Positions 1,640 through 14,915 of a stretch of DNA of 32,000 nt are shown piece by piece. The DNA lies in assembly GCA_048886185.1 (NCBI GenBank), contig JBHLKY010000001.1, forward strand, positions 284,046 to 316,045, read 5' to 3'. The stretch comes from Candidatus Hermodarchaeota archaeon (GTDB taxonomy: Archaea > Asgardarchaeota > Heimdallarchaeia > Hodarchaeales > Hodarchaeaceae). The first letter of the stretch is position 1. The number at the start of each line of letters is the position of its first letter. The notes beneath the pieces were generated by a model. That model saw only the letters and a program-made list of their open reading frames with translations, ran no database searches and was not told where the DNA came from. A program made the position numbers and the translations under genes.

Positions 1640-4600
1640 TTACTTTTTTCTTCGAAGCCAAACCAATAATAGACTTAACGATAGGATAGAGAAAATTAAT
1701 TCAAATCCGGATGCTCCAATTTCTGGGCCTTCTTTACTCTCAGGGGTTGTTGCAGTGGTTTCTTCAATGTTATTAATTTCAAAGAGATCTGATTGTAAGC
1801 TGGTAGTATCTGTTCCATCAGAGATTTCGATAATGATTCTATATCCAGTATCATCAGGATAAGCCGTACTGTCGAAAGAATATGTTGTATCAGTAGTGCC
1901 TGATTTTAATGTAATTTTTGTTCCATCTGGCTTAACAAGGATAATGGTAGATGTAAGAATATCTCCATCAGGATCACTGGCAGTCCAAGTAATGATTTCT
2001 GTACCACTGATAACATTATCTATATTTTCAAGTGTTCCTTCTGGAGCTCTATTCCCTATCTGAACTTTCACTCTAATGATCAATGGTGTTGTTTCATCAC
2101 CTATTAATCCAATGACAAATGTGCGAACTCCCGCTGTGAGGCCCGACGGATTGTAGTGGAAAGTGAACGTCTTTTGATCAACTTCTGCCCAATTTGTGAA
2201 TGATTGGGATTGTTCAACAAATGCCTCAGTCCATGCGAAAATTCTTCCAGAGGGAACAGTTCCAATGCCTATGTTGGTTAACCTGACGATAATATCAAAT
2301 TCTTCGTTTAAATCGACGTATGTTGGGGCGTTTATATCGTCAAATTCGACTGCATGTGTGAATGTTTCATATCCCTCGAATGAGAAGTGAATATCTATCC
2401 CAGATATTGTCGTTAACACCATTTTGTACCTTAGAACTTGAGGGTAATTATTTGGATAACTGTAATCAATGATATGAGTTTTGTAGCTAATAATATGGCC
2501 TGATTCTGTAAGAGCTCTTACACGTAAGACCATAACTTGTGGTTTTGAGATTCCAGCATCTCCTGCAACGGGGAAGACATCAATGAAATATTCTCCTTTA
2601 ATAGGTGAGTGAATTGTTAGATTTTGTGAATCCGGTATGAGTCCTGAATAGGTAGTTCCAGGATATGCCTCTTCAAAGCCTGTTGTATAGTTGTAACCAA
2701 CACTCATAGTTGAATTCCATAGGTAGATTGCAGAACCATCCACTGATTCCAAGGTAACTTCAAGCGAGTCCATTGGAATGTGTCCATAATAAACCTGCTG
2801 TGCAAGAATAGCTTGTACTGTCGCAAACACTGGAGGTTCTCCTCCCATGGTATTTTCCCAATAGGCTCTGGTGGAAGTCACATATATCATGTGAGTATTG
2901 AGATACTCTGTTATACTGTCATACCACCACTGATCACTATCACGTCCTGCCATAAGGAACGCTTTGCTTGCTGAAAGATACCAATAGTATTCAAATGAAC
3001 GACCTGAATGTGGATTTCCACCAACAATCTGTCCAGAATTGTTAATCCAATCGAGGGCGGATAATATGTCAGGATCGTTTGGTTCAGATCCACTGAGATA
3101 TAATCCCCAGATTCCTGCCGCTGTCATTGATCCATAGCTACTACTGCCCCAATCACGCCAATCTTCAGTACTCGGAGTGTAGGTAAAGCCACCATCGTAT
3201 CTCCAAATTCCTTCCTCGTCATATCCTCCTCTACAGCGCCTAACAAAAATATCGACTTTATCCCAAAGATTAGGATCAAATGGATCCAATCCCCCAGGAT
3301 TGAAGTTTTCATAGGTTGATAGTGTGAGGATTGCCCACTGACTTACAGAAAGATCAGACGATTGGTGATCGTCTCCATATCGCCAACCACCGTACCAGGG
3401 ATCACTTAGATCTACGCTCCACGTTTCGTCATTTTGTGTATAGACCAACCATGCAATAGCATCATCAATAAGTGAATCTAGAGCAGAATCGTACCCAGGG
3501 AGGGTCGCATTGTAAGCGAGTAAAGTAGTAGTTGCCATAGCAGTCTCATAAGTACTATGATAGATTGACCTACCATCATCTTGATCAAAGCTAAAAGTAT
3601 TTTGCAGGTATCCAATTGCATCTTCAACAACCTGATCATAAGCCAAACCTGCTTGGATGAAGCAGAGAGCAGCAAGAGCTGCCATTCCTGGTCTACCATA
3701 TTCTTGCCCAGGTTGATAATCCCATGATCCATCGGGATTTTGTTGAGTTCGTAACCAAGCTAATCCTTTGGTGATGGTACTTTCTGGTGAGGGAATCGTA
3801 CCAGGGTCGATAGTGATTGAAATGGTGGTTTCCGAGGTCTTATAGGTCATATCATACGCTCTTATGGTTATTTCAATATTTCCTATGAGATCATGTGAAG
3901 GGAACCAAGTAAACCTAAAATCAGGCCCAGAGGCTGGTTCACCCCAATTCCATTCATAAGGATTGTAAGTAAATAAAACCTCTTGACCAGAAAGAATCTG
4001 ATAGTATAATATAGCAGATTCATCAATGCTTGTTCCAGTGATAGAGATTCCATAGTATTGCCCAAAATGTGCTCCATTTGTAGGTGTGGTAATGCTTACA
4101 CTAGGTGGGGATGTATCTTCTGTTATATCTACTCTCACAGTAAGATCCTGAGTGGCAGTTGGGGGCTGATCGTAATCTGCATGGAGTACTTGAAAGAGCC
4201 ATGGACTTGTGTATTTACCAATCTGTATCAAGTAATGATCCGTATTGATATTCCCCATCCATTCCTCCCATCGAATAATATCTCGATCCCAAATGCTGCG
4301 AAGGCGTCCAAAACCATCTAGATACCATATATCGAAATCGGGTAATCCCACATCTACCGGTTCAGTTCGCTCTACCTGTAAGTGAAGAACATCATTAAAG
4401 TATTGTGGAACTATACCAAACAATTCAGAATCATTAACTGCGAGAGTCCCAAAATTATATTCATCACCAGGCCCTAGAACTTGTATTGGGGAAATAGAGC
4501 TAATATCTATTGCAGTCGAGTAAGGAGCGACTGCATATGACATATTACAAGGGCTAAAAGGTTCATGATGATATAGTTCAACAATTGCTACTTCTTCAAA

Positions 4601-5503
4601 GTATATTGTTGGATTTGTGTCACCATAAAAATCGAAAGCTCTAAGTATCCCTCTTGAGATTGTCAGCTTTATTTCATTTAGACTATTTGATTGTAACCAG
4701 AATGTTTGTTCCCAATGTCCTATTGTCTCTCCAGTACTATTTCGTAATACTAATCGGATATAGTACGGTTCATCATTATTCATCCAATGAAAGAAACTTT
4801 GAAATGTAATATTTACTTCTAAATAGTCCGATGTGAGAGTTGCATCATGCATTATGAACGATCCAATCTCCATTGGTTCATCAAAAGTATAAATGTCAAA
4901 TATTTGAGGAATTAATAATAGAGGGTTCTCATCGGGATTGTAGGACCAATTTTCATCAAAGATTTCATAGTTATATTGAGTGCTTCCATTCGCTAATTGA
5001 ACGTGAGAAATCCGATATGGGCCAGCTAGTTTCAATGCTCTTAGTTGTGTGCAGTTGAAATGAACTGTAATATTGTGAATACCATTTGATAATGTCTGAA
5101 AATTGCTTTTTCCCCAGAAAAAATAACCTCCATCATAGTATCGGTCATTAGTATATGGATCGGTGAATCTGCGTTGAAAAGTTTGATCATAGAGTGCTGC
5201 CATAACAATATAATCCGTTACGTATGTCGATGTAATTTCTACCTCAACATTGATCATTAATATGTCAAAATCACCGTCAGGCTCAATATCATTAAGCCCA
5301 TTATAGAAAATTCTTCCTGTTAGATGTCCTCGGGGATCATCTTGCATTATCTTAGTAGCAACAGTTGGAGAAGATGTCTGTATTCTTTGATCTTTATTTG
5401 CAAAGTTCGAAGATATATTTGTCAAATTTGTAGGTGACATTCCGAGAGAAAAAGCACCAACCAAAAAGATTGCTATCAATATAATGAAATTTCTTTTTAT
5501 CAT
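1640..5503 (-). CDS. Large secreted/cell-surface multidomain protein: signal peptide, beta-sandwich/Ig-like domains, prenyltransferase/squalene-cyclase-like (alpha/alpha) repeat barrel, CARDB/Ig-like domains, C-terminal PGF-CTERM-like anchor
   Basis: N-terminal MIKRNF plus hydrophobic stretch; QW-like repeats WLRTQQNPDGSW and WLVYTQNDETW...GGW; DGGFTY, YGSMTAAG; Ig-like DTSPPSVSITTPTNG and NRAPEGTL; Thr-rich linker then SGFELIFSILSLSLLLVWLRRKK. Confidence 0.85.
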   Translation of the reverse strand: MIKRNFIILIAIFLVGAFSLGMSPTNLTNISSNFANKDQRIQTSSPTVATKIMQDDPRGHLTGRIFYNGLNDIEPDGDFDILMINVEVEITSTYVTDYIVMAALYDQTFQRRFTDPYTNDRYYDGGYFFWGKSNFQTLSNGIHNITVHFNCTQLRALKLAGPYRISHVQLANGSTQYNYEIFDENWSYNPDENPLLLIPQIFDIYTFDEPMEIGSFIMHDATLTSDYLEVNITFQSFFHWMNNDEPYYIRLVLRNSTGETIGHWEQTFWLQSNSLNEIKLTISRGILRAFDFYGDTNPTIYFEEVAIVELYHHEPFSPCNMSYAVAPYSTAIDISSISPIQVLGPGDEYNFGTLAVNDSELFGIVPQYFNDVLHLQVERTEPVDVGLPDFDIWYLDGFGRLRSIWDRDIIRWEEWMGNINTDHYLIQIGKYTSPWLFQVLHADYDQPPTATQDLTVRVDITEDTSPPSVSITTPTNGAHFGQYYGISITGTSIDESAILYYQILSGQEVLFTYNPYEWNWGEPASGPDFRFTWFPSHDLIGNIEITIRAYDMTYKTSETTISITIDPGTIPSPESTITKGLAWLRTQQNPDGSWDYQPGQEYGRPGMAALAALCFIQAGLAYDQVVEDAIGYLQNTFSFDQDDGRSIYHSTYETAMATTTLLAYNATLPGYDSALDSLIDDAIAWLVYTQNDETWSVDLSDPWYGGWRYGDDHQSSDLSVSQWAILTLSTYENFNPGGLDPFDPNLWDKVDIFVRRCRGGYDEEGIWRYDGGFTYTPSTEDWRDWGSSSYGSMTAAGIWGLYLSGSEPNDPDILSALDWINNSGQIVGGNPHSGRSFEYYWYLSASKAFLMAGRDSDQWWYDSITEYLNTHMIYVTSTRAYWENTMGGEPPVFATVQAILAQQVYYGHIPMDSLEVTLESVDGSAIYLWNSTMSVGYNYTTGFEEAYPGTTYSGLIPDSQNLTIHSPIKGEYFIDVFPVAGDAGISKPQVMVLRVRALTESGHIISYKTHIIDYSYPNNYPQVLRYKMVLTTISGIDIHFSFEGYETFTHAVEFDDINAPTYVDLNEEFDIIVRLTNIGIGTVPSGRIFAWTEAFVEQSQSFTNWAEVDQKTFTFHYNPSGLTAGVRTFVIGLIGDETTPLIIRVKVQIGNRAPEGTLENIDNVISGTEIITWTASDPDGDILTSTIILVKPDGTKITLKSGTTDTTYSFDSTAYPDDTGYRIIIEISDGTDTTSLQSDLFEINNIEETTATTPESKEGPEIGASGFELIFSILSLSLLLVWLRRKK

Positions 5504-5932: not shown

Positions 5933-6934
5933 ATGTTTAGAAAGAAAAAGCCCTCTGAGATCGAGTTATTAGAACAGAAATTTTCTGAGAAGACAGATAA
6001 AATCGAAACACGAATAAATAATATGACCCAAGAATTAGCGGAAAGAATTGCAGCAATTGAGAAACATTTAGAGGGATCTGCAGTTCGGCAAAGTGAACTA
6101 TCTCAGACATTCGAGAATAGGAGTGTTGAAATTCGAACTCAGGCAACTAAAGAGTTTAAAACATCACTTGAGGAAGTTAGAAGTTCATTGGAGACCTTAG
6201 GATTAGAACTTAACAATCAAGTTCTCGACTTAAGTACAAGACTTGAACAACTTGATCAGAACTCGAGTAATTGGTCATTTGCTATTAATGAGCAGATTGA
6301 AGAGTTTCGACAAAATTACGTAAATGTCTTAGAAGAACTTCGTCAAGGTAGAAATATCGCGGTTGAAAAAGAGCGGCTTATGAGTCAAAAATATGAAGAA
6401 TTAGTTAATCAGTTGAAGGAAAAAGAAAAACTAGCAATTGAAAAGGAAGCATTAGCTCAGCAGCGGATTGGTTCTTTACAAGACGAAGTACAGAAAAAAG
6501 AAAAAGAAGTAGAAAAAACCACTTCACAGCTCGAACAGCTAGAATCTGAACTAAAAGCTAAAAATGGATTTATTGATGAATTACGAGAAAGAAAAATTAA
6601 AGCTGAAGAGCTGAAACTCGAACTCAAGCGTTTGAGTGAAGAAAATGAATTGAAGACCTATGAACTTGAGAGAGCTAAAAGCCAAATGACAACCATGTCG
6701 GATGATACCAGACGTTCTCTGGGTACAACAAAGGCAATAAAAACTTTTTTGAGCGAAAGTGAGTCGGGGAGAGTCTTAAGTCATCTGATGGGTGTGGAAC
6801 AAGCCTCAGTGGATGATCTAGCAACAATGACGGGGATTGCAACTTACACTGTTCAACAAATTCTTCAACACTTCCAAGATATGGGCATCATTACATTAGA
6901 TAAAACTACAAGACGAGCAAAGCTAAAAGAATAG
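5933..6934 (+). CDS. Long coiled-coil protein with C-terminal winged helix-turn-helix domain
   Basis: About 260 aa of E/K/Q/L-rich heptads, then SGRVLSHLMGVEQASVDDLATMTGIATYTVQQILQHFQDMGIITLD, a typical wHTH pattern. Confidence 0.8.
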   Translation: MFRKKKPSEIELLEQKFSEKTDKIETRINNMTQELAERIAAIEKHLEGSAVRQSELSQTFENRSVEIRTQATKEFKTSLEEVRSSLETLGLELNNQVLDLSTRLEQLDQNSSNWSFAINEQIEEFRQNYVNVLEELRQGRNIAVEKERLMSQKYEELVNQLKEKEKLAIEKEALAQQRIGSLQDEVQKKEKEVEKTTSQLEQLESELKAKNGFIDELRERKIKAEELKLELKRLSEENELKTYELERAKSQMTTMSDDTRRSLGTTKAIKTFLSESESGRVLSHLMGVEQASVDDLATMTGIATYTVQQILQHFQDMGIITLDKTTRRAKLKE

Positions 6935-6980: not shown

Positions 6981-7523
6981 ATGGAAGTAAAGATTGGATC
7001 AACCATTATACGTTTGGTTCTAGGGGATATTACTCAAGAAAACACTGACATCATTGTAAATGCGGCAAACACTTCACTCAGAGGAGGTGGGGGTGTTGAT
7101 GGAGCTATTCATCGTGCTGGGGGTTCTGAGATCCTGCAGGAATGTGTCGAGAAGTATCCTGAGGGATGTGAAACGGGGGAAGCTCGAATAACTACAGCGG
7201 GACAGTTAAATGCTAAATTTGTAATCCATACACCTGGTCCGATTTGGAAAGGTGGGAGACAAAACGAGGATGATCTTCTAGCAAGTTGTTATCGTAATTC
7301 TCTCCATCTCGCCATAGAATATGATGCTAAAACAATTGCATTTCCGTCTATTTCAACTGGAGTGTATAGGTTTCCGATTGATAGGGCATCAAAAATAGCA
7401 CTTTTAACCGTTATTGAAAATCTAGTGTCGACTTCTATAATAGAAGTTCACTTTGTCTTATTTAGTGATTCAGACCTTCAAATCTACGAGAAAAATCTTC
7501 TAGAGATAATTAATAACAGATAA
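6981..7523 (+). CDS. Macrodomain protein (O-acetyl-ADP-ribose deacetylase / ADP-ribosyl hydrolase, YmdB/MacroD-like)
   Basis: [45 protein letters not shown] motifs. Confidence 0.95.
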
Positions 7524-7567: not shown

Positions 7568-8317
7568 TTAAGAGTTACGTGGTTTTTTTGCTTTTATCCT
7601 AAATTTAGGGATTTTTTCTTCATATGTTGGTGGTGGTTTTTGCCTTGATGGTGTTTTTATTTTAATTTTTTTAGGAATAAGTCTGTTTATTCCCTTAGAT
7701 TCCTTTTTCTTTTCTGCTCCTCTTGATGTGGGAATAGTCATATTTATTATTGCTGCTGAAGGTTTTTTATCACTAACTCTGGGAACAGGTTTGTTAACGA
7801 AATTAGATTTCTTTTTTGAAGAGCTTCCTAAGGAATGAGGTATTTTAATTTCCTTATTCGGATGCTTAGGAATTGGAGCAGGTTGATTTGAAACCAATTT
7901 TTTTCGATTTCTTTTCGAAAGCGCCCCAAGACTAGTTGGTGGAGCATGAGATCTTTCTTGTTGTGAAGAAGACTTTGGAGGAGTTTTAGAATTAACTGTG
8001 TTTTGATCCTTCTCTTTTATTGGAGATTTAACTGGTTTGAGAGAAGTTTCGCCCTTAATTTGATCTGATAATGGAGGTGGAACATTATAATAAGGAGTAT
8101 CATCTTTTGATGGTTCAATTGTTCCATGTCTGGAAGGTAGTGAGTTTGATGACTTTGGTATGTTTACTTTCAACTTTTGTTTTGGTGGAGGAAGTTCAAA
8201 TACTTCTTCTGCCCCGTTTGGAAATTTAGATTTAATTATTGAACTTTTAGAATTCGTGGGGATCTTCTGTTTAATTTCCTTACTAGGCTTTTTCTCACGG
8301 ATTTTCCATCTTACCAA
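7568..8317 (-). CDS. Lys/Pro/Ser-rich, highly basic, probably intrinsically disordered protein
   Basis: 249-aa open frame, TTG start with upstream AGGA; composition dominated by K, P and S, no hydrophobic core; same strand as, and downstream of, the Ubl cluster. Confidence 0.7.
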   Translation of the reverse strand: MVRWKIREKKPSKEIKQKIPTNSKSSIIKSKFPNGAEEVFELPPPKQKLKVNIPKSSNSLPSRHGTIEPSKDDTPYYNVPPPLSDQIKGETSLKPVKSPIKEKDQNTVNSKTPPKSSSQQERSHAPPTSLGALSKRNRKKLVSNQPAPIPKHPNKEIKIPHSLGSSSKKKSNFVNKPVPRVSDKKPSAAIINMTIPTSRGAEKKKESKGINRLIPKKIKIKTPSRQKPPPTYEEKIPKFRIKAKKPRNS

Positions 8318-8340
8318 TTAATCCAATTTCCTAATCTGTT

Positions 8341-8363
8341 AAAGGAAAATTCTATTTTCCTTT
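8341..8363. promoter_or_regulatory. Perfect 10-bp inverted repeat (terminator hairpin or operator)
   Basis: AAAGGAAAAT-tct-ATTTTCCTTT in the 107-bp gap between the 6-TM gene and the K/P-rich gene. Confidence 0.4.
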
Positions 8364-8424
8364 TAATCTAATCAAATATTCTCTCTTAAATTTATAATGC
8401 TAACGAAATATATTACAAAATATC

Positions 8425-9009
8425 CTATTTTCCAAATAAAAATCCAATTCCAGAAAAGAGGAAAAATAAACCATATAGGATCCCTATTAAATCAGTAGTT
8501 ATTAGCCCTGCAGTTAAGAAAAGTGCACCAAATACAAAAAAAGTTATTAGAGCAGTCCATTCTGCTGAGGGCCCTTTCTCAGATTGCGAAGTAATTCTAA
8601 TGAATTGATATCGAGTGAAACTACGTAATAACAGGGCGGATGATACTGCTAAATACGGAAATGCTAATATTGAGGATACAGTAATTTGAAGTTGAGTGAA
8701 TTCATTTACAGGTAGAATTTCAACGTTAAAAGTTAACAATGGTTCTTCATTAAGAGGGAAGAACGAACTTGTAAGTATAACCAATAAGGGAATGATATTC
8801 GCTAATGAAAAAAAGTAAATCTCATTCAAGGTTGCTTTTACATCAATATAATATAGAATTCTTAGAAAATAAAATATAGTTATGGTTGCATATAGAGTCA
8901 GGTAGAGAATATTCATAGCATTACTGTCTTCATCACGTATGAAGAAAAAAATACTAGCTGATATTCCCATAAGGAAGACAAAAAATGCCATGGAATGACG
9001 TGAAGCCAT
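8425..9009 (-). CDS. About 6-TM integral membrane protein; apparent paralog of the membrane domain of the adjacent RING protein
   Basis: Six hydrophobic segments; starts 4 bp after the RING gene stop; by-eye alignment with the RING protein TM1-TM4. Confidence 0.8.
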   Translation of the reverse strand: MASRHSMAFFVFLMGISASIFFFIRDEDSNAMNILYLTLYATITIFYFLRILYYIDVKATLNEIYFFSLANIIPLLVILTSSFFPLNEEPLLTFNVEILPVNEFTQLQITVSSILAFPYLAVSSALLLRSFTRYQFIRITSQSEKGPSAEWTALITFFVFGALFLTAGLITTDLIGILYGLFFLFSGIGFLFGK

Positions 9010-9013
9010 CTTT

Positions 9014-10168
9014 TTAGCCCCATCGGTTATTTAGAAGATTTTCCTGAAACATTTTAATTAATTTCTCGTAATTCTTCCCAGAAAGACGATACATCTTTTT
9101 TGTTGAGATAGGTTTATTACATCGGGAACAAATATCTGCAACACTAAGCCATTTTTCTAACTCAAGCGAATGAGCTGGATGACCACAATGAGGACAGATG
9201 ACTACTTTCTTATCTGGTTCAGTGGGAAATCCATAACAAAAAATACATCGAAAGTCATCATGAGATAAATGTTGGCCAGAGGGAATAAGCTTAGTAATGA
9301 TAGCTGGATTTAGTCTGTCGATACGAGTAACTGTTCTCCCTGTTTGTATTCCTGGAGCTACTGTAACAGAGTTGATACTTTCGGATCGTGGTGTTCTAGA
9401 CATTTGGGGTACTGATCTTGGTTGTAATAGGCTTGCTTGATTCGTTCTTGGTTGGCTATTTGCATTGCGAGGACTAACTGAGGATGTTCTATTAACAATA
9501 AAAGATCTCCCTAATGTTTGTTGAGGTAAACGATTAACAGTCACACGACGGATTGGAACAAGAACAACCTTAAGTATATAATATTGGATCAGAAAAATAA
9601 TACTAACACTAACAAAACATAATCCACTAAATTCAATAATCCTAGTTTGGATCCAAAAAAAAGCTAAACTTAAAATTATACAGAGATTATACAGAATGAC
9701 AATTTTGTTGGGAACCTTCCTTCTAAAGATAAAAATTGATGGATACCTGTTTGAATAATACTTTTGGAGGAGAAATAGGAGAAATATAAAGAATGGTAAC
9801 ACAAAAATAATACTAAATATGTTTAGAAAAACAAAATAATTTCCACCATTAATAAACTCAATGTCGAGAGAGATTTCGAAGAAAGATGATCGTAGAAAAT
9901 CATTTTCTCCTAAAGACGCTGTATGAGCTATCAATGTTCCCCCATATGCGATTAACGACGGGATTCCAATAAAGATTCCCGAGGCAATTGGAGCATTATA
10001 ATGCTGGAAATATCGCCATTCCTCAAGAAATTTTAAAATCAAAATTGCAGTTAAAGTAATATAAGCAATTGTAAGAGCAGTTTCTATTGGTTGATCAGTG
10101 AGTAATGTTAATAGCGTAAAAACAAACCCGACGACACAGATAGAAAGATATACATTACGCCCGACCAA
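9014..10168 (-). CDS. Membrane-anchored RING-H2-like putative E3 ligase (about 6 TM, disordered linker, C-terminal RING variant)
   Basis: TTG start with GAGGT upstream; TM segments within aa 5-204; C308-x2-C311...C325PHC328GH330PAH333SLE336LEKW340...C347-x2-C350; operon position after JAB/E2/E1. Confidence 0.85.
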   Translation of the reverse strand: MVGRNVYLSICVVGFVFTLLTLLTDQPIETALTIAYITLTAILILKFLEEWRYFQHYNAPIASGIFIGIPSLIAYGGTLIAHTASLGENDFLRSSFFEISLDIEFINGGNYFVFLNIFSIIFVLPFFIFLLFLLQKYYSNRYPSIFIFRRKVPNKIVILYNLCIILSLAFFWIQTRIIEFSGLCFVSVSIIFLIQYYILKVVLVPIRRVTVNRLPQQTLGRSFIVNRTSSVSPRNANSQPRTNQASLLQPRSVPQMSRTPRSESINSVTVAPGIQTGRTVTRIDRLNPAIITKLIPSGQHLSHDDFRCIFCYGFPTEPDKKVVICPHCGHPAHSLELEKWLSVADICSRCNKPISTKKMYRLSGKNYEKLIKMFQENLLNNRWG

Positions 10169-10186
10169 ATACTTTTCGACCTCGAG

Positions 10187-11107
10187 TTAATTCTCATGAT
10201 CATATTCTAAAAACATACTACCATTTTTCTCTGCTAGTGGAAGAAGGGTATTCATCATCTCAGGAAGGCTCTCTAGAGGGCAATTAAGGACTTGGTAGGG
10301 TGGTTCTTCCCAGGTTTGCAAATCCTCTTTTAAACGGAATATTTTAAAGCCATATGAACGTTTAGATATTTTTGTTGGATCAATAACTAAAGCAATAGGT
10401 GCTGTTAACTGGGAGTCTTTCGTCCTTCCAAGTTTTTGGTAGCGAACTTGAGTCTCAAAATCGGTTTGACTCATGAATACTCCATATGATGGGTGACTAT
10501 GATACCAACCAAGAATAAGCTGATCATGGGTTTTCATTTTTATTTCATTATACACTCTGACCATGGATTGAGGATCTTGGATTTGTGCATTTACCTCAGT
10601 GCCATGACCAATTGGATAGGCATCCTCGACATTTAAACATGCTAATGGAGTATCTTTTTGTTCAATTTGTCCCGTTAAAAGCCCGATTACCTCAATCCAT
10701 TTACTTTGGGGTGTATTCGGATTTGCGTACTTTAAAGCATGTAAAGCAAGCTTTATGTAAGCTTTAAGATGAATTTTAACACGAGAAGGCTTCGAGTCGG
10801 GATCTAGGTCATCAAGATTTAAGTCAACAGATTCTGTGTTTTCTTCTCGATTTTGATTCATATTATGATTTTCATCCTTATTGAGATTCTCTGATCCGTT
10901 GGTAAAAAGCTTCTCTGTTTTTGTTTTTAATTGGGAAGGTTTAAACTGTATTTGCTTACTTAATGGATTCCAAGTATAATTATCAGGCGGGAGAGTAATG
11001 AAAGGAAATTTTAACGTAAATGATAAAGTTTGAGGGTCAAATGTTAATGAAAGATCCCGTAGTAGTAATTCGAAAACATTTTTGGGAATTTTATTATTAT
11101 TAGGCAT
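10187..11107 (-). CDS. JAB1/MPN+ (JAMM) metalloprotease, Rpn11/CSN5-like deubiquitylase or Ubl maturase, with about 110-aa N-terminal extension
   Basis: RVKIHLKAYIKLALHA...EVIGLLTG and LGWYHSHPSYGVFMSQTD (E...HxHx7Sx2D intact), IALVIDP. Confidence 0.93.
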   Translation of the reverse strand: MPNNNKIPKNVFELLLRDLSLTFDPQTLSFTLKFPFITLPPDNYTWNPLSKQIQFKPSQLKTKTEKLFTNGSENLNKDENHNMNQNREENTESVDLNLDDLDPDSKPSRVKIHLKAYIKLALHALKYANPNTPQSKWIEVIGLLTGQIEQKDTPLACLNVEDAYPIGHGTEVNAQIQDPQSMVRVYNEIKMKTHDQLILGWYHSHPSYGVFMSQTDFETQVRYQKLGRTKDSQLTAPIALVIDPTKISKRSYGFKIFRLKEDLQTWEEPPYQVLNCPLESLPEMMNTLLPLAEKNGSMFLEYDHEN

Positions 11108-11136
11108 TTTTCTAGCAACGCTCTATGTTTAGATTT

Positions 11137-11664
11137 TTACCATTTTTCAGAAGCATATTTCTTAGTAATTTTATGGGCTTTTTTCAAGAAATTCTTGCGA
11201 TCACTAAGATATTCTTGAGCTGCTTTCTTATTGAAAACATCATGAGGATTAGTATACGCTGTGTCAATGTTGAACATTGCTAAAATCGAATAAATTATTG
11301 TACTAATGTTTTTTGAAGGAGACCAACCGTCTGGTCTTCCCACAAGGTCGGGGTCAACAAGAGCTAGGCATATATTCCGTTTTCCTTGATATTCGTCAGG
11401 TTTTGGCCAGAAATTTGGATGCCAAATTGGAGTATGTAATCGGACAAAAGGGGGGGAATATGGGTAGTTTGATCCAAACTTAATTTCTAGTTTGAATTTG
11501 CCCTTTTCATAAGGGGTTCCTTTCGGTCCCTCAAGAAGAATTGCTAAGTGTTCTACGCTTTTTTTTCCGCCTGGAAAGGCCTTTAGCTGCTTAATGGTTT
11601 TTTGTTTGTATAATTTTTTTAGTTGTTTATAATCATCAGCGATTCGTTTAAGTCTGATAGACAT
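11137..11664 (-). CDS. Ubiquitin-conjugating enzyme E2 (UBC fold)
   Basis: RLKRIADD, GPKGTPYEKGKF, YPYSPP, HPN (82-84), catalytic C99, WSP, PHDVFNKKAA. Confidence 0.95.
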   Translation of the reverse strand: MSIRLKRIADDYKQLKKLYKQKTIKQLKAFPGGKKSVEHLAILLEGPKGTPYEKGKFKLEIKFGSNYPYSPPFVRLHTPIWHPNFWPKPDEYQGKRNICLALVDPDLVGRPDGWSPSKNISTIIYSILAMFNIDTAYTNPHDVFNKKAAQEYLSDRKNFLKKAHKITKKYASEKW

Positions 11665-11680
11665 TTCTCACACCTTTTTA

Positions 11681-12925
11681 TTACTCAATTTTCAATTTAA
11701 TATAGGATTGAGTGCCATCATCAAACCCCGTGACCAATATAGTCTCATAATCTCGGATTCCAGCTTCAAATATGCTCTGATTTGTATCAATTTCATTAAT
11801 ATCTGAATTATCTATACGAAAAACAATTGGAGGAAATTCTGGATCAATGGTGAGCTTTTTTTCTTCCGCTAATTTATTGATGATCTTTTGAATATTTGCC
11901 TTAGAATTCACTTTTATCCGATAGAGGGGGGAATGGTTATTACCACACATTGTACAATCTGGGTTCTTAGGTTTTTCAATTTCATAGAACTTCCCAGTCA
12001 AACCATTGTATATCACATAATTTAATTGAAGTGTTCCAAGTTTTCTTTTTTCTGGAGGTGTGTGGAGATGATGAAGAATTTTAACTGCTTCTTGTGATTG
12101 TAGAGATGCCATTACACAATTGATGGTGATAACTGTTGGCTCGTGATTATCTATTATTTGGATGATCTGATCAGTCGTAAACGGTTGTGAGCCGGGAAAA
12201 TATTGTTTAAGTAGATGATTCGCATATTCTCTAATGGTGTCAACTTCATCTTGTTTGAGAATGTTCACCGGCCGATTGTAATCCTGTTCAAATTTCAATT
12301 GGCCTTTGAGTATACAATGAGCTGGTCTACGGGGATTACCTACTAAAGTGCAAGCCCCTAGCTGATCTTGTTCTCGTTCTGTTAATGGATCACACTCTAA
12401 ACAAGCATTACTGAATGGCCAGACACAATAAACGTGTCCATTGAATGCTGCTGTACCAGCATCGATCAATGGCTTTCGATTATGAATAGCTCGCCTGTTT
12501 AATTCTGACCTTGCTTCTATTGAATCTAAGCCAGCGATGTAAAGATCAGCTTCATTATATAGATGGGGAGGTAGATCTTGAAGCGCGCAATTATGAGCCT
12601 CTACTTCAATGAAAGGATTCAATTCTTGTAAACGTTTAGCCGCATATTGTGCCTTAGATGTTCCCTCTGTGGCTCCGATGAACAGTACCTGGCGATTCAA
12701 ATTAGAATATTCAATTGTATCAAGATCCACCAGGATTAATCGGCCGACTCCGACCATTGCGAGGTTTTTTGCAACTTCCACACCGAGGCCACCAACGCCA
12801 ACAATAAGAACGGTACTTTTTTTAAGGATCTCTTGTTTCCATCCAGGTAAACGGAGTTGGCGATCAAAGCGACGCTTTTCTTCTTCAGTGAACAGGTTAC
12901 TGGTGAAACTTGATATTTTATTCAT
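11681..12925 (-). CDS. Ubiquitin-like activating enzyme E1 (ThiF adenylation domain, catalytic Cys insert, C-terminal ubiquitin-fold-like domain), UBA3/UBA2-like
   Basis: RFDRQ, VGVGGLG, DLDTIEYSNLNRQ, DAGT..FNG, Zn pairs CLEC and CTMC, ACTLVGNPRRPAHC with putative catalytic C192. Confidence 0.93.
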   Translation of the reverse strand: MNKISSFTSNLFTEEEKRRFDRQLRLPGWKQEILKKSTVLIVGVGGLGVEVAKNLAMVGVGRLILVDLDTIEYSNLNRQVLFIGATEGTSKAQYAAKRLQELNPFIEVEAHNCALQDLPPHLYNEADLYIAGLDSIEARSELNRRAIHNRKPLIDAGTAAFNGHVYCVWPFSNACLECDPLTEREQDQLGACTLVGNPRRPAHCILKGQLKFEQDYNRPVNILKQDEVDTIREYANHLLKQYFPGSQPFTTDQIIQIIDNHEPTVITINCVMASLQSQEAVKILHHLHTPPEKRKLGTLQLNYVIYNGLTGKFYEIEKPKNPDCTMCGNNHSPLYRIKVNSKANIQKIINKLAEEKKLTIDPEFPPIVFRIDNSDINEIDTNQSIFEAGIRDYETILVTGFDDGTQSYIKLKIE

Positions 12926-12938
12926 ATTTTTTCAACTA

Positions 12939-13301
12939 CTAATTTATTGATCCAGCTGTTGAAACTGGGATAATCAAACATTCAAGTCCATCTTCAATAT
13001 CATAATTCGAGAGAACATCATCTGCATCTAAGGTTCTTCCACTTATGGATATATGGAAGTCTTGTGGATCAAGACCGAAGATTCCTCCAAGCGTTTCTTT
13101 TAAATCTGAGACCCCCATCTCAGGATCGATTGTGAGTTTTTCAAGTTTCTCTCCAGGCCCAATTGTGGATCGAAAGAATAAACTAACGCGAGAATCTTTT
13201 GGGATTTTACTTGTAGGCACTTTTGTCGTCACTACAGGAGTTTCTGAGTTCTTCTTTTCTTCTTCAATTTCCAGGTCATCAAAATCTTCATTTTCAGACA
13301 T
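12939..13301 (-). CDS. Ubiquitin-like protein B: acidic N-terminal extension, beta-grasp core, ends STAG-SIN (putative pro-form)
   Basis: Start placed at ATG 13301 (GGAG upstream; MSENEDFDDL parallels Ubl-A). Core FHISISGRTLDADDVLSNYDIEDG aligns without gaps to ubiquitin residues 43-64. Confidence 0.9.
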   Translation of the reverse strand: MSENEDFDDLEIEEEKKNSETPVVTTKVPTSKIPKDSRVSLFFRSTIGPGEKLEKLTIDPEMGVSDLKETLGGIFGLDPQDFHISISGRTLDADDVLSNYDIEDGLECLIIPVSTAGSIN

Positions 13302-13477
13302 TAAGCAATTCTCCATTCTGATTAAAAGCATCCAAATTATCAATTCATCTTCAATATGAAAAACATTGTTTTTTGAATCTTCTTTTGTTTGCAAATAATC
13401 TTCTGAATACGTCAATTTAATTATTCCCTTTTATCTCATAGGTACAAAATTGATGTGATTTGATGATGGAAATTGAT

Positions 13478-13681
13478 TCAAATCAAAATCTCCCCTAAGA
13501 TAGACTCTTTTCCTGATTGAAGAAGCCAAAGATTAGCTTGAATATAATACTCAATTGACGCTAGTAACAAATTTAAATCGCTTTTGCAGTCTTTATGTTC
13601 GCTAAGAGCCCTTTTTGCTTTCTCTCGCTCAACCATGGCAAAAACAATTGTTTCAATAATACTAGCTCGAACCTCTTTCAA
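13478..13681 (-). CDS. Small hypothetical helical protein between the two Ubl genes
   Basis: 67-aa ORF with TTG start filling the gap between the Ubls on the operon strand; no clear family. Confidence 0.4.
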   Translation of the reverse strand: MKEVRASIIETIVFAMVEREKAKRALSEHKDCKSDLNLLLASIEYYIQANLWLLQSGKESILGEILI

Positions 13682-13701
13682 TAAAAAGCCATCCTGAGAA
13701 G

Positions 13702-13731
13702 ATAAAAAGAAGGGGAGTTCTTTCTTTTTAT
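13702..13731 (-). terminator. Hairpin/oligo-T terminator-like element after Ubl-A
   Basis: 10-bp inverted repeat ATAAAAAGAA...TTCTTTTTAT enclosing (minus strand) AGAACTCCCC; begins about 30 bp after the Ubl-A stop. Confidence 0.5.
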
Positions 13732-13760
13732 TCTAAAAAGTTGAATAATATGGAAAAAAC

Positions 13761-14108
13761 TCATCCAGCCGTACTGTGAGGGATCAAAAGAATTTCATCG
13801 CCGTTATCGACACCATAATCACCTAAAGGTGCTGACTCATCTAGAGTCCGACCGGCGTGGCTTAGATGAAAATCATCTGGATTTAACCCAAAGATGTTAG
13901 CCAAGGTGTCTCTGACGTCTCTAACAGGAGTGTTTTCTCCTACAGAAATTTTTTCAGTACGTTCAGGCCCAACGGTGGATTTGAAGAAAATATTCTTCTT
14001 AGGACCTGCAGATACTCCTGATACTGGAGTTTTCGATTGGGCGGGAGTTTTGGATTTAATTCTGGTTTTTTCTTCTAAATCAAAGTCCAAATCTTCAAAA
14101 TCTGACAT
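13761..14108 (-). CDS. Ubiquitin-like protein A: acidic N-terminal extension, beta-grasp core, mature C-terminus STAG
   Basis: AGGTGA ribosome-binding site before the ATG; FHLSHAGRTLDESAPLGDYGV matches ubiquitin [20 protein letters not shown]; ends GDEILLIPHSTAG*. Confidence 0.92.
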   Translation of the reverse strand: MSDFEDLDFDLEEKTRIKSKTPAQSKTPVSGVSAGPKKNIFFKSTVGPERTEKISVGENTPVRDVRDTLANIFGLNPDDFHLSHAGRTLDESAPLGDYGVDNGDEILLIPHSTAG

Positions 14109-14132
14109 TTTTTTATCACCTTATTCTTTTGT

Positions 14133-14161
14133 ATGAGTTTTATTTTGTATATGAAACTCAT
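14133..14161. promoter_or_regulatory. 8-bp inverted repeat in the probable 5' leader of the Ubl operon
   Basis: ATGAGTTT-(13 nt)-AAACTCAT. Confidence 0.45.
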
Positions 14162-14166
14162 GTAAG

Positions 14167-14209
14167 ATACGTACCTTACGTATTTATAAAACTTACGGAA
14201 TATACGTAA
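14167..14209. promoter_or_regulatory. Divergent promoter: TATA-like box flanked by two TACG-based palindromes (candidate operators)
   Basis: ATACGTA-cct-TACGTAT (14167-14183), TTTATAAAA (14183-14191), TTACG-gaatata-CGTAA (14193-14209). Confidence 0.65.
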
Positions 14210-14229
14210 CACCCGAAAAATATATAAGG

Positions 14230-14679
14230 GTGAAAGTAATATTTTCCATCAAAGAGATTATGAAAGAAGATGAGGTTGACTTATTGTCAGAAAGTGCCCA
14301 AAATACCAAAATTTCTAGTAAGGCGTGGGAACTTTTACGATGGGCAAAATTTGAGCTTGATGCAAAATCTTACAGTGATGTAATTGTTTTATTAAACAAG
14401 AAAATTAATAACCGGTCGAAAAGTATGGAAAAGGCATTAGAAAACTTCGATGAGGAACGACATAGGATCAAAGTAAAAACACCCGGTAATGATGAAGAAC
14501 AAAGCATTTTCTTAGAAAAACCTAAAACAATCTTATTAAGACCCGAAGCTCGAAAGATTCTCAATCGATTAAAATTAGAAAGCAATAAACCAGCATATAC
14601 ATTTTCGGATGGAATTGAATTTATAATAAAAGGAAATAAAGAAATCTGGAACGCTATTCCTGATCGTTTGAAGAAATAA
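14230..14679 (+). CDS. Putative tandem ribbon-helix-helix DNA-binding protein (two archaeal antitoxin/CopG-like RHH units)
   Basis: Unit 1 NTKISSKAWELLRWAK..DAKSYSDVIVLL; unit 2 KTILLRPEARKILNRLK..AYTFSDGIEFII; both fit the 'TI..S..A...L..LK...SFSDVI' pattern. GTG start at 14230 or ATG at 14260. Confidence 0.7.
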   Translation: MKVIFSIKEIMKEDEVDLLSESAQNTKISSKAWELLRWAKFELDAKSYSDVIVLLNKKINNRSKSMEKALENFDEERHRIKVKTPGNDEEQSIFLEKPKTILLRPEARKILNRLKLESNKPAYTFSDGIEFIIKGNKEIWNAIPDRLKK

Positions 14680-14708
14680 AAGGATTAATTTAATTGTGTG
14701 GTATTACC

Positions 14709-14915
14709 GTGTCAGAGACAGATTTAGAGGTCATTTTTGATTTAATTGCACGAAATCCCCCAATATTCGCAGTTATTGGTGGTATCAGCCTCGTTCTTCT
14801 TGGAGGAATACTAGAAATTGAAGCTCTGGTTTCTTCTGGTTGGAGTGCTCTGGTGACTGGCGCTTTTCTCCAAGTAGGCTGGATTGTAATGATAAACTCT
14901 AGAAGAAAACGTTGA
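14709..14915 (+). CDS. Small 2-TM membrane protein
   Basis: GTG start (MSETDLEV...), two hydrophobic helices, basic tail SRRKR; 29 bp downstream of the RHH gene on the same strand. Confidence 0.6.
   Translation: MSETDLEVIFDLIARNPPIFAVIGGISLVLLGGILEIEALVSSGWSALVTGAFLQVGWIVMINSRRKR

Follow-up and report, generated by a model that had tools for sequence, protein, structure and literature searches.

A ubiquitin-like conjugation operon with Ala-Gly modifiers and a candidate membrane-embedded RING ligase in Asgard archaea

Introduction

The ubiquitin operons of Aigarchaeota and Asgard archaea are regarded as the seed of the eukaryotic ubiquitin system. For the operon of Caldiarchaeum subterraneum (Rpn11, Ub, E2-like, E1-like and srfp), a cascade of activating enzyme (E1), conjugating enzyme (E2) and RING protein has been reconstituted, and Rpn11 has been found to act both in processing and in deconjugation (PMC5654768, PMC6043591). 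Asgard archaea are also known to have Gly-Gly systems linked to the endosomal sorting (ESCRT) machinery (Hatano et al. 2022, PMC9192718), and a recombinant Helarchaeial cascade of E1, E2 and soluble RING ligase (E3) modifies UEV-Vps23 (Lu et al., bioRxiv 10.1101/2023.07.25.550441). Here we describe a homologue of the Caldiarchaeum operon in a 32,000-nucleotide stretch of DNA, hereafter the window, from a Candidatus Hermodarchaeota archaeon of the order Hodarchaeales (assembly GCA_048886185.1, contig JBHLKY010000001.1, positions 284,046 to 316,045 of the forward strand), whose genome is assembled as 4.84 Mb in 75 contigs and is 96% complete. The locus encodes two ubiquitin-like proteins (Ubls), UblA and UblB, that carry a C-terminal Ala-Gly motif, an E1, an E2, a JAMM isopeptidase and a six-helix transmembrane (TM) protein with a RING-type domain (TM-RING), and we consider it probable that these work together as an E1-E2-RING cascade by which Ala-Gly tags are ligated on the cytoplasmic side of the membrane.

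The Caldiarchaeum operon and the one in the window share a one-chain E1, a UBC-type E2, a RING protein, a β-grasp modifier and a JAMM protease; the modifier precursors in both have short C-terminal tails, and the JAMM protein of the window is closest to that of Caldiarchaeum, CsRpn11. The Caldiarchaeum RING protein is small and soluble, however, and its modifier ends in Gly-Gly, whereas here the RING belongs to a six-helix membrane protein and the modifiers are of Ala-Gly type. The window differs further in having two modifiers with conserved N-terminal tails, and in the linkage of three more genes, for a second membrane protein (the 6-TM protein, a probable paralogue of TM-RING), a K-x-P-rich basic protein and a candidate regulator. 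The Asgard Gly-Gly systems have the phylum and the enzyme families in common with this operon, but differ from it in their di-glycine pro-ubiquitin, their soluble RING protein with an N-terminal loop and their clustering with ESCRT genes. An earlier note on this DNA, made by reading the sequence alone, had taken the core to be of a kind already known, and the described archaeal E1/E2/RING/Rpn11 operons bear this out.

The searchable papers on archaeal and Asgard operons describe small soluble RING proteins and di-glycine tags. Within the searchable literature, which does not extend to the supplements of the first Asgard papers, we found no membrane-embedded RING protein and no Ala-Gly modifier in Asgard archaea. 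Relative to these papers, it is the membrane-embedded ligase candidate and the Ala-Gly tags that are new.

Results and Discussion

Gene content and conservation of the operon

Searches of the open reading frames (ORFs) of the window against Pfam and NCBIfam, together with fold searches, support the locus as a complete set of Ubl, E1, E2, JAMM and RING genes (Table 1). The genes for UblB, E1, E2, JAMM, TM-RING and 6-TM follow one another on one strand, separated by 13, 16, 29, 18 and 4 bp, with UblA ahead of them and the disordered basic protein behind. The earlier note had given these same gaps and this same order, both of which agree exactly with the ORF coordinates, and had judged the catalytic motifs of E1, E2 and JAMM to be intact; the residues concerned are invariant, as counted over 59-71 orthologues.

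In 11 genomes of the same genus the complete order, from the divergent regulator gene through UblA, UblB, E1, E2, JAMM, TM-RING and 6-TM to the basic protein, is kept wherever the contig reaches. The synteny of Ubl, E1, E2, JAMM and TM-RING was found in 17 loci from relatives, and other families of the class have either the order Ubl-E1-E2-JAMM-TM-RING-6TM or a rearranged form in which E2-JAMM-TM-RING-6TM is separated from Ubl-E1. A scan of named Asgard metagenome-assembled genomes, taking one genome per species, gave 80 further loci; nearly all those of sufficient reach have Ubl-E1-E2-JAMM-TM-RING, and the carriers include Hodarchaeum mangrovi, Heimdallarchaeota B3_Heim, Loki_b31, Promethearchaeum sp. 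and Borrarchaeum. The TM-RING family is present in 69 of 201 sampled Asgard genomes, with frequencies of 9/9, 17/22, 6/7 and 31/40 in some families and, with the query used, 0/43 and 0/19 in others. A profile of its membrane domain, searched over 1.84 billion cluster representatives, matched only 107 proteins, which fall into two length classes of about 340-465 and about 190-214 residues. The weakest named matches are all Asgard, and this search found no relatives by sequence outside the Asgard archaea, eukaryotes included.

The core is Asgard-wide, and we have discarded the reading of the system as a local speciality. The genes around the core are more restricted. The 6-TM gene adjoins TM-RING in all Heimdallarchaeia-type loci of sufficient reach but does not follow it in Loki-type loci; the basic protein, likewise, is seen only in Heimdallarchaeia-type loci, and the regulator gene, which may encode a ribbon-helix-helix (RHH) protein, only in the same genus and in one other genome of the order. 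The earlier note had named, as one finding that would overturn it, a lack of TM-RING, 6-TM and RHH genes beside the core in relatives. The synteny of the core with TM-RING in Hodarchaeales, other Heimdallarchaeia, Lokiarchaeia-type and Borrarchaeum genomes leaves the note unrefuted; the distribution of the other two genes is narrower.

The Ala-Gly modifiers

UblA and UblB are paralogues. UblA matches the ubiquitin family PF00240 with 31.2 bits (E 1.9e-7), and UblB with 21.1 bits (E 2.7e-4), which is below the Pfam cut-off; sequence and orthologues together place the start of UblB at ATG 13301 (MSENEDF...) and not at TTG 13415. A gap-free alignment puts A114-G115 of UblA in register with G75-G76 of ubiquitin. 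An S-[T/I/V/R]-A-G end is found in all 29 Ubl ORFs of the first 17 loci and in 94/94 from the 80 further loci, and in both sets the Ala-Gly is either terminal or trailed by 1-6 residues. This invariance in the linked ORFs upholds the earlier view of the modifiers as non-Gly-Gly tags. The Ser-Ile-Asn tail of UblB is missing in orthologues or replaced by 1-3 residues, and UblA is 85-89% identical within the genus. We considered, as a conserved rule, that UblA is made in mature form and UblB is gated by processing; this was rejected, as short tails vary on both paralogues.

Both proteins have N-terminal tails of ∼35-40 residues, in which an acidic [DE]-F-[ED]-[DE]-L block is followed by two copies of K-[T/V/I]-P, about six residues apart, and this pattern is kept from Hodarchaeales to Loki-type genomes. 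In the UblA of the window both copies are K-T-P. The parts of the window that encode the tails with K-[T/I/V/L]-P are 13990-14060 and 13190-13250. At the other end, the last 28 or so residues of the tag include neither Lys nor Arg, so that the standard workflow of trypsin digestion and di-Gly remnant detection would miss its conjugates. Runs of T directly past the UblA stop codon suggest that the UblA transcript may also terminate on its own.

Loki-type loci have, between two Ala-Gly Ubl genes and on the other strand from them, two genes that are absent from the window (L078:2965-3774, -, and 3860-4531, -). One product is anchored in the membrane and has a Ubl-like domain at its C-terminus, but no Ala-Gly end; the other is a 223-residue protein of winged-helix type.

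The E1, E2 and JAMM enzymes

The E1 matches ThiF with E 2.6e-54, and its nearest solved proteins are UBA1, UBA3 and SAE2. It comprises an adenylation domain, the catalytic Cys192 in the motif A-C-T-x-V-G-x-P-R...H-C, a Cys4 zinc site and a C-terminal β-grasp-like domain; G43xGGxG, N75xNRQ, the zinc cysteines 175, 178, 324 and 327, A-C192-T and H-C are invariant in 59 sequences. The E2, closest among solved proteins to UBE2T and UBE2L3, matches UQ_con (E 3.2e-27), and its H82-P-N motif and C99 (in NIC) are invariant in 67 sequences. It has two inserts, one of 7 residues between HPN and the cysteine, the spacing being 15 residues compared with about 8 in UBE2T, and a short one past the cysteine.

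The JAMM protein matches JAB (E 1.8e-15); its nearest solved relatives are CsRpn11 (6fjv, E 1.3e-12), Rpn11 and CSN5, and 69 sequences all keep E139, H203xH205, S213 and D216. An N-terminal extension of ∼105 residues (window 10790-11107) can be aligned only within the genus, and the JAMM proteins of other families have shorter, unrelated N-termini. The sequence KIPK at the N-terminus of the JAMM protein was dropped as a candidate motif, as it is not kept in orthologues.

Predicted structure of the membrane RING ligase candidate

An AlphaFold2 (AF2) model of TM-RING, built on 32 relatives, has an overall predicted local distance difference test (pLDDT) score of 78.6 and divides the protein into three parts. 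Residues 4-202 form six TM helices, with a β-hairpin between helices 3 and 4 and a pLDDT of about 90; residues 204-282 form a disordered linker rich in Arg and Ser; and residues from about 288 to 380 form a compact C-terminal domain with a pLDDT of 80-91. All of the top 50 Foldseek matches in the Protein Data Bank (PDB) are RING or U-box E3 domains, among them those of Rad18, RNF4, LNX1, CHIP, Ring1b/Bmi1, TRAF6 and Prp19, with probabilities up to 1.0 and TM-scores on the target of 0.57-0.78. Comparisons of residues 299-381 with VIA-align, an independent aligner that runs all against all, gave Z scores of 8.9 (3lrq), 8.0 (Ring1b) and 7.7. A RING/U-box fold for the C-terminal domain is thus well supported by the model and, with the six predicted TM helices, agrees with the earlier note's proposal of a polytopic ligase candidate.

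The domain carries the signature C308-I-x-C311-x13-C325-P-x-C328-x2-P-x-H333-x2-E336-x3-W340-x6-C347-x-R-C350 in 71/71 sequences, which are drawn from the whole phylum. I309 and W340 are thereby invariant; the Ile after the first Cys and the Trp of the helix are the residues that contact the E2 in RINGs of c-Cbl type. His327 is present in 37/71. Some relatives match zf-RING_2 (best E 1.3e-5), zf-RING_16 and Prok-RING_1 weakly. In the model, the RING shares one side with the basic loops of the membrane domain and with the linker, which by the positive-inside rule fits an N-in/C-in topology with a cytoplasmic RING.

The database relatives of TM-RING are all annotated as hypothetical, and atlas searches, by shape and, with the TM domain, by feature and structure, returned nothing but Asgard clusters, labelled hypothetical or RING, and helical proteins without relation to it (PsiE, DctM and MgtE). 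One genome of the same genus has an in-frame TGA in its TM-RING orthologue (G019:C103:5113-6216); a sequencing error, a pseudogene and recoding are the possible explanations.

Comparison with eukaryotic membrane-linked systems

The closest eukaryotic parallels in architecture are the polytopic ligases Hrd1/gp78-Der1, Doa10/MARCH6 and MARCH, in which a multi-pass domain likewise carries a cytosolic RING and, in the case of Hrd1-Der1, there is a second multi-pass partner. No sequence homology between these endoplasmic reticulum ligases and TM-RING was detected, however. VIA-align superposes residues 1-141 of TM-RING, with TM helices 1-4, on human HRD1 (9uav_B) with Z 8.2 over 113 residues (rmsd 3.4) and on yeast Hrd1 (6vjz_B) with Z 6.3, both values lying in the noise range for helical bundles. 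The 6-TM model lists neither Hrd1 nor Derlin, only generic helical matches, and homology to them is not claimed. Hrd1 also differs in its RING-H2 domain (C3H2C3), as against the pattern C-x2-C-x13-C-x2-C-x4-H-x2-E-x10-C-x2-C of TM-RING. We take the Cys/His spacing of TM-RING (C-x2-C...C-x2-C-x4-H-x2-[E]...C-x2-C) to resemble the C4HC3 arrangement of RING-CH and PHD domains. Assignment to the RING-CH type of MARCH and Doa10 was nevertheless rejected, as the sixth ligand is Glu and not Cys, and RINGv is matched neither by the window TM-RING (E <= 0.1) nor by 32 relatives (E <= 0.05).

The UFM1 pathway is a second parallel. It has a Ubl that ends in Val-Gly rather than Gly-Gly, its own E1 (UBA5) and E2 (UFC1), and a membrane-anchored UFL1/DDRGK1. 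A separate non-Gly-Gly Ubl, a dedicated E1 and E2, and a membrane-tethered ligase are thus common features. In the window, by contrast, the Ubl matches PF00240 and not Ufm1, the ligase candidate is a RING protein, and the E2 carries HPN, a motif missing from UFC1. Homologues of Ufm1 have been reported from Asgard archaea (PMC12962969).

The 6-TM protein and the basic protein

Profile alignment (hhalign) of the membrane domain of TM-RING with the 6-TM protein gave E 3.4e-6 and was collinear, 18-148 matching 18-140. The AF2 model of the 6-TM protein (pLDDT 80.9) has six helices and one hairpin in the same order as TM-RING. From profile and model together, it is most likely that the 6-TM protein is a RING-less duplicate of the ligase membrane domain, in line with the earlier suggestion of a RING-less partner for a membrane E3. 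A complex prediction for TM-RING 1-205 with the 6-TM protein scored 0.00, to which we attach no weight for or against pairing.

The basic protein beyond the 6-TM gene matches no Pfam or NCBIfam family. Proteins about 30-36% identical to it occupy the same position throughout the genus, and in another Heimdallarchaeia family a similar Lys-rich protein adjoins the 6-TM gene on the opposite strand (L060:9747-10481). These basic proteins of the two Heimdallarchaeia families are arrays, of 5-11 copies, of K-[I/T/V/L]-P, the K-x-P motif that also occurs twice in each of the Ubl tails. Composition shuffles gave an expectation of 1-1.7 copies for the proteins of relatives, which have 8-10 (reached in 0/2000 shuffles), and of 1.4 for the window protein, which has 5 (reached in 22/2000); the motif was defined after it had been noticed, and the enrichment is to be read as a lead. 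K-x-P may serve in acceptance or recognition, or may be a site of proline-directed phosphorylation.

Other Ubl systems in the same genome

The same genome encodes further Ubl systems. Contig 14 has a ubiquitin that ends in ...TTGG-NK (L030 1483-1737) directly beside its own 341-residue E1 (L030 386-1411), with a KaiC-like ATPase and a small GTPase next to them; an E2 (C14:45202-45573) and a UEV-like protein (C14:34641-34898) lie on the same contig. This set probably corresponds to the ubiquitin system with ESCRT linkage that has been described from Hodarchaeia. Contig 8 has a 109-residue Ubl ending in ...IKGG at the stop codon (L033 1282-1611), a 410-residue E1 (L033 1660-2892), a 263-residue protein with an N-terminal zinc ribbon (L033 477-1268) and a divergent E2 (C8:10436-10912). 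Two weak E2-like ORFs that adjoin a 435-residue ThiF-family protein on contig 10 (154051-155672) may represent a fourth Ubl-type module.

The enzymes of contigs 14 and 8 are only distantly related to those of the window, with identities of 31-37% for the E1 (37% for that of contig 8) and 26-32% for the E2, and the window E1 and E2 are far closer to their positional orthologues in other classes. Given both this low identity to the Gly-Gly sets and the higher similarity to positional orthologues, the Ala-Gly system is thus an old pathway, orthogonal to Gly-Gly ubiquitin, and no local variant of it. The system is in this sense a distinct one, as had been proposed, set apart from the Gly-Gly Ubl/E1/E2 sets of its own genome.

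The divergent gene and its control region

The divergent gene lies opposite UblA in the genus loci of sufficient reach and in one other genome of the same order (41% identity). Its product matches VAPB_antitox in Pfam (E 0.012) and PRK13696 in NCBIfam (E 4.7e-4), both far below the cut-offs; a profile search against PDB sequences gave no meaningful match, and the atlas leads, CopG and DUF7557, scored under 0.9. It has two similar units, each strand-helix-helix by pattern, which align with each other in hhalign with E 2e-4 and a probability of 46%, and this is suggestive of two RHH-like units in tandem.

Between the two genes are a TTACG-N7-CGTAA palindrome, a TATA-like box, a TACGTA palindrome and, before UblA, a GGTGA ribosome-binding site. 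The block GGTGTTACG..TATTTCGTAAG-(TATA)-..TACGTA..TTACATGA is kept in 10 genus loci, and the window has three perfect copies of TACGTA. The divergent protein is the putative ligand of this region.

Proposed mechanism and alternatives

The genes present, their folds, the invariance of the catalytic residues, the synteny and the separation from the Gly-Gly systems are read directly from the data; the chemical steps, the pairing of the membrane proteins, the regulation and the substrates we infer. UblA and UblB would expose a C-terminal Ala-Gly, any tail of 1-3 residues being removed by the Rpn11-like JAMM protease. The cognate E1 would adenylate the terminal Gly and form a thioester on Cys192, from which the tag would pass to Cys99 of the UBC-type E2. 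The cytoplasmic RING of the six-helix protein would then discharge E2~Ubl onto lysines and, since this RING is part of a membrane protein, ligation would take place at the inner face of the cell membrane. The JAMM protease would also reverse conjugation, both of its roles being modelled on the reconstituted Caldiarchaeum system. In Heimdallarchaeia the RING-less copy of the membrane domain encoded next door probably pairs with the ligase and, in Hodarchaeales, the divergent protein, which is probably a tandem RHH, is likely to act as repressor or activator at the palindrome-TATA-palindrome region. Our guess is that the substrates are membrane or membrane-proximal proteins, with the K-x-P-repeat protein and the Ubl tails as candidates. 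The inducibility suggested in the earlier note, and its choice of membrane proteins or lipids as targets, are conjectural.

Several observations weigh against this cascade or its parts. The invariant Cys and His residues of TM-RING number seven, with Glu336 invariant at the sixth ligand position in 71 sequences, and the window protein has no significant match to any Pfam RING model. The paralogy of the two membrane proteins is a moderate (88%) profile match of hydrophobic sequences combined with predicted topology, and the RHH assignment of the regulator is weak. With such a ligand set, the E3 activity of TM-RING and its zinc content are putative.

The ligand set and the missing Pfam match would both suit a protein that serves as membrane anchor or receptor, either as a degenerate RING that docks the E2 or the Ubl or as itself the main target, its auto-modification being the signal; the long Arg/Ser-rich disordered linker is a possible site of such modification. 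We think this improbable. Every fold match is to an active E3 domain of RING or U-box type, and U-boxes work without zinc, so that an imperfect ligand set is compatible with activity. The Ile and Trp of E2-contact type are invariant, moreover, and TM-RING is the only RING that the operon encodes.

A ligase that sits in the bilayer with conserved loops at its cytoplasmic face, and a tag whose single terminal Gly follows a small residue, also raise the question of whether the Ubls are joined to the head group of a membrane lipid, in the manner of Atg8 and phosphatidylethanolamine. We regard this as very unlikely. The E1 and E2 are of UBA1/UBA3 and canonical UBC (HPN) type, not of Atg7 or Atg3/Atg10 type, the E1 scoring 129 bits to UBA1/UBA3 compared with 35.6 to ATG7; the isopeptidase is of Rpn11 type rather than a cysteine protease of Atg4 type; and a RING is present. 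RING E3s promote aminolysis by lysine, and we know of no lipid-conjugating RING. An assignment to the Atg8/Atg12 lipidation type was set aside on these grounds.

Bacterial Ubl/E1/E2/JAB operons serve defence, and the E1 does match PADLOC E1-E2 models through ThiF (up to 75.6 bits), but a conflict or antiviral role like that of bacterial Bil or Cap2/Cap3-type operons of cyclic oligonucleotide-based antiphage signalling systems, with the tagging of viral parts at the membrane, is extremely unlikely. The PADLOC scores fall far short of that of the E1 to ThiF in general, and the E2 (E 0.007), the JAB domain (E 1.4e-4) and the Ubl and RING proteins (nothing meaningful) leave only the ThiF part of the E1 matched to a known anti-phage Ubl system. 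Several Asgard classes share the synteny of the cluster, which seems to be inherited vertically. Its flanks are housekeeping genes, for a Macro domain protein, an acyl-CoA dehydrogenase and a transporter of the peptide ABC type, and are unlike a mobile defence island.

On the preferred reading, the Asgard set with the widest synteny has its sole operon-encoded ligase in the membrane and, alongside ordinary Gly-Gly systems, works with an Ala-Gly tag, an E1 and an E2 that are private to it. If this holds, the archaeal relatives of eukaryotes already had several orthogonal Ubl pathways side by side, ubiquitin-type ligation at membranes is older than the eukaryotic endomembranes, and the origin of membrane ubiquitylation of sorting type, or of the kind used in endoplasmic reticulum-associated degradation (ERAD), can be tested with proteins of organisms now in culture. 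A bolder extension, which we consider rather unlikely, takes the operon as the ancestral Asgard apparatus that sets ubiquitin-type marks at the cell membrane and as a prokaryotic, functional forerunner of the quality control or sorting of membrane proteins in eukaryotes (ERAD-like or endocytic marking), and supposes that it may recognise K-[T/I/V]-P. The K-[T/I/V]-P motifs in the Ubl tails would then allow SUMO-like chains, and the adjacent basic protein would be a dedicated poly-acceptor, an adaptor or a decoy.

Locus map and neighbouring genes

Table 1. Positions of the operon genes and of the adjoining features in the window (residues, aa)
Feature	Position	Strand	Basis or remark
Divergent regulator candidate	14284-14679	+	131 aa from TTG 14284; other starts GTG 14230, ATG 14260
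Shared control region, 175 bp	14109-14283		between regulator gene and UblA
UblA, 115 aa	13761-14108	-	PF00240; ends ...STAG-stop
Small ORF, 67 aa, uncertain	13478-13681	-	in 459-bp UblA-UblB spacer
UblB, 120 aa	12939-13301	-	PF00240; ends ...STAG-SIN-stop
E1-like activating enzyme, 414 aa	11681-12925	-	ThiF
E2, 175 aa	11137-11664	-	UQ_con
JAMM/MPN+ isopeptidase, Rpn11-like, 306 aa	10187-11107	-	JAB
TM-RING, membrane RING ligase candidate, 384 aa	9014-10168	-	fold search; weak RING matches of relatives
6-TM protein, probable RING-less paralogue, 194 aa	8425-9009	-	hhalign and AF2 topology
Lys/Pro-rich disordered basic protein, 249 aa	7568-8317	-	107 bp beyond 6-TM gene; position kept
Small two-TM ORF, 73 aa, uncertain	14694-14915	+	after regulator gene

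Neither of the two small ORFs has a family match. The frame in the spacer between UblA and UblB is open only in the three closest loci, at 46-48% identity, and may represent either a small gene or a frame that is open by chance. The two-TM ORF has a counterpart in only one related locus (61% identity) and probably lies outside the conserved system. Rfam and tRNA scans of the whole window found no RNA genes.

Two genes converge on that of the basic protein; in the relatives that were examined, no counterpart of either turned up close to the operon. The first (window 5933-6934, +) encodes a 333-residue protein with a long coiled coil and a C-terminal MarR-like winged helix, and the second (6981-7523, +) a Macro domain protein (E 4.4e-44). 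Beyond them, a gene on the other strand (1640-5503, -) encodes 1287 residues with an N-terminal signal-like segment, a weak Ig-like match and a C-terminal TM anchor, and its product is probably a large surface protein.

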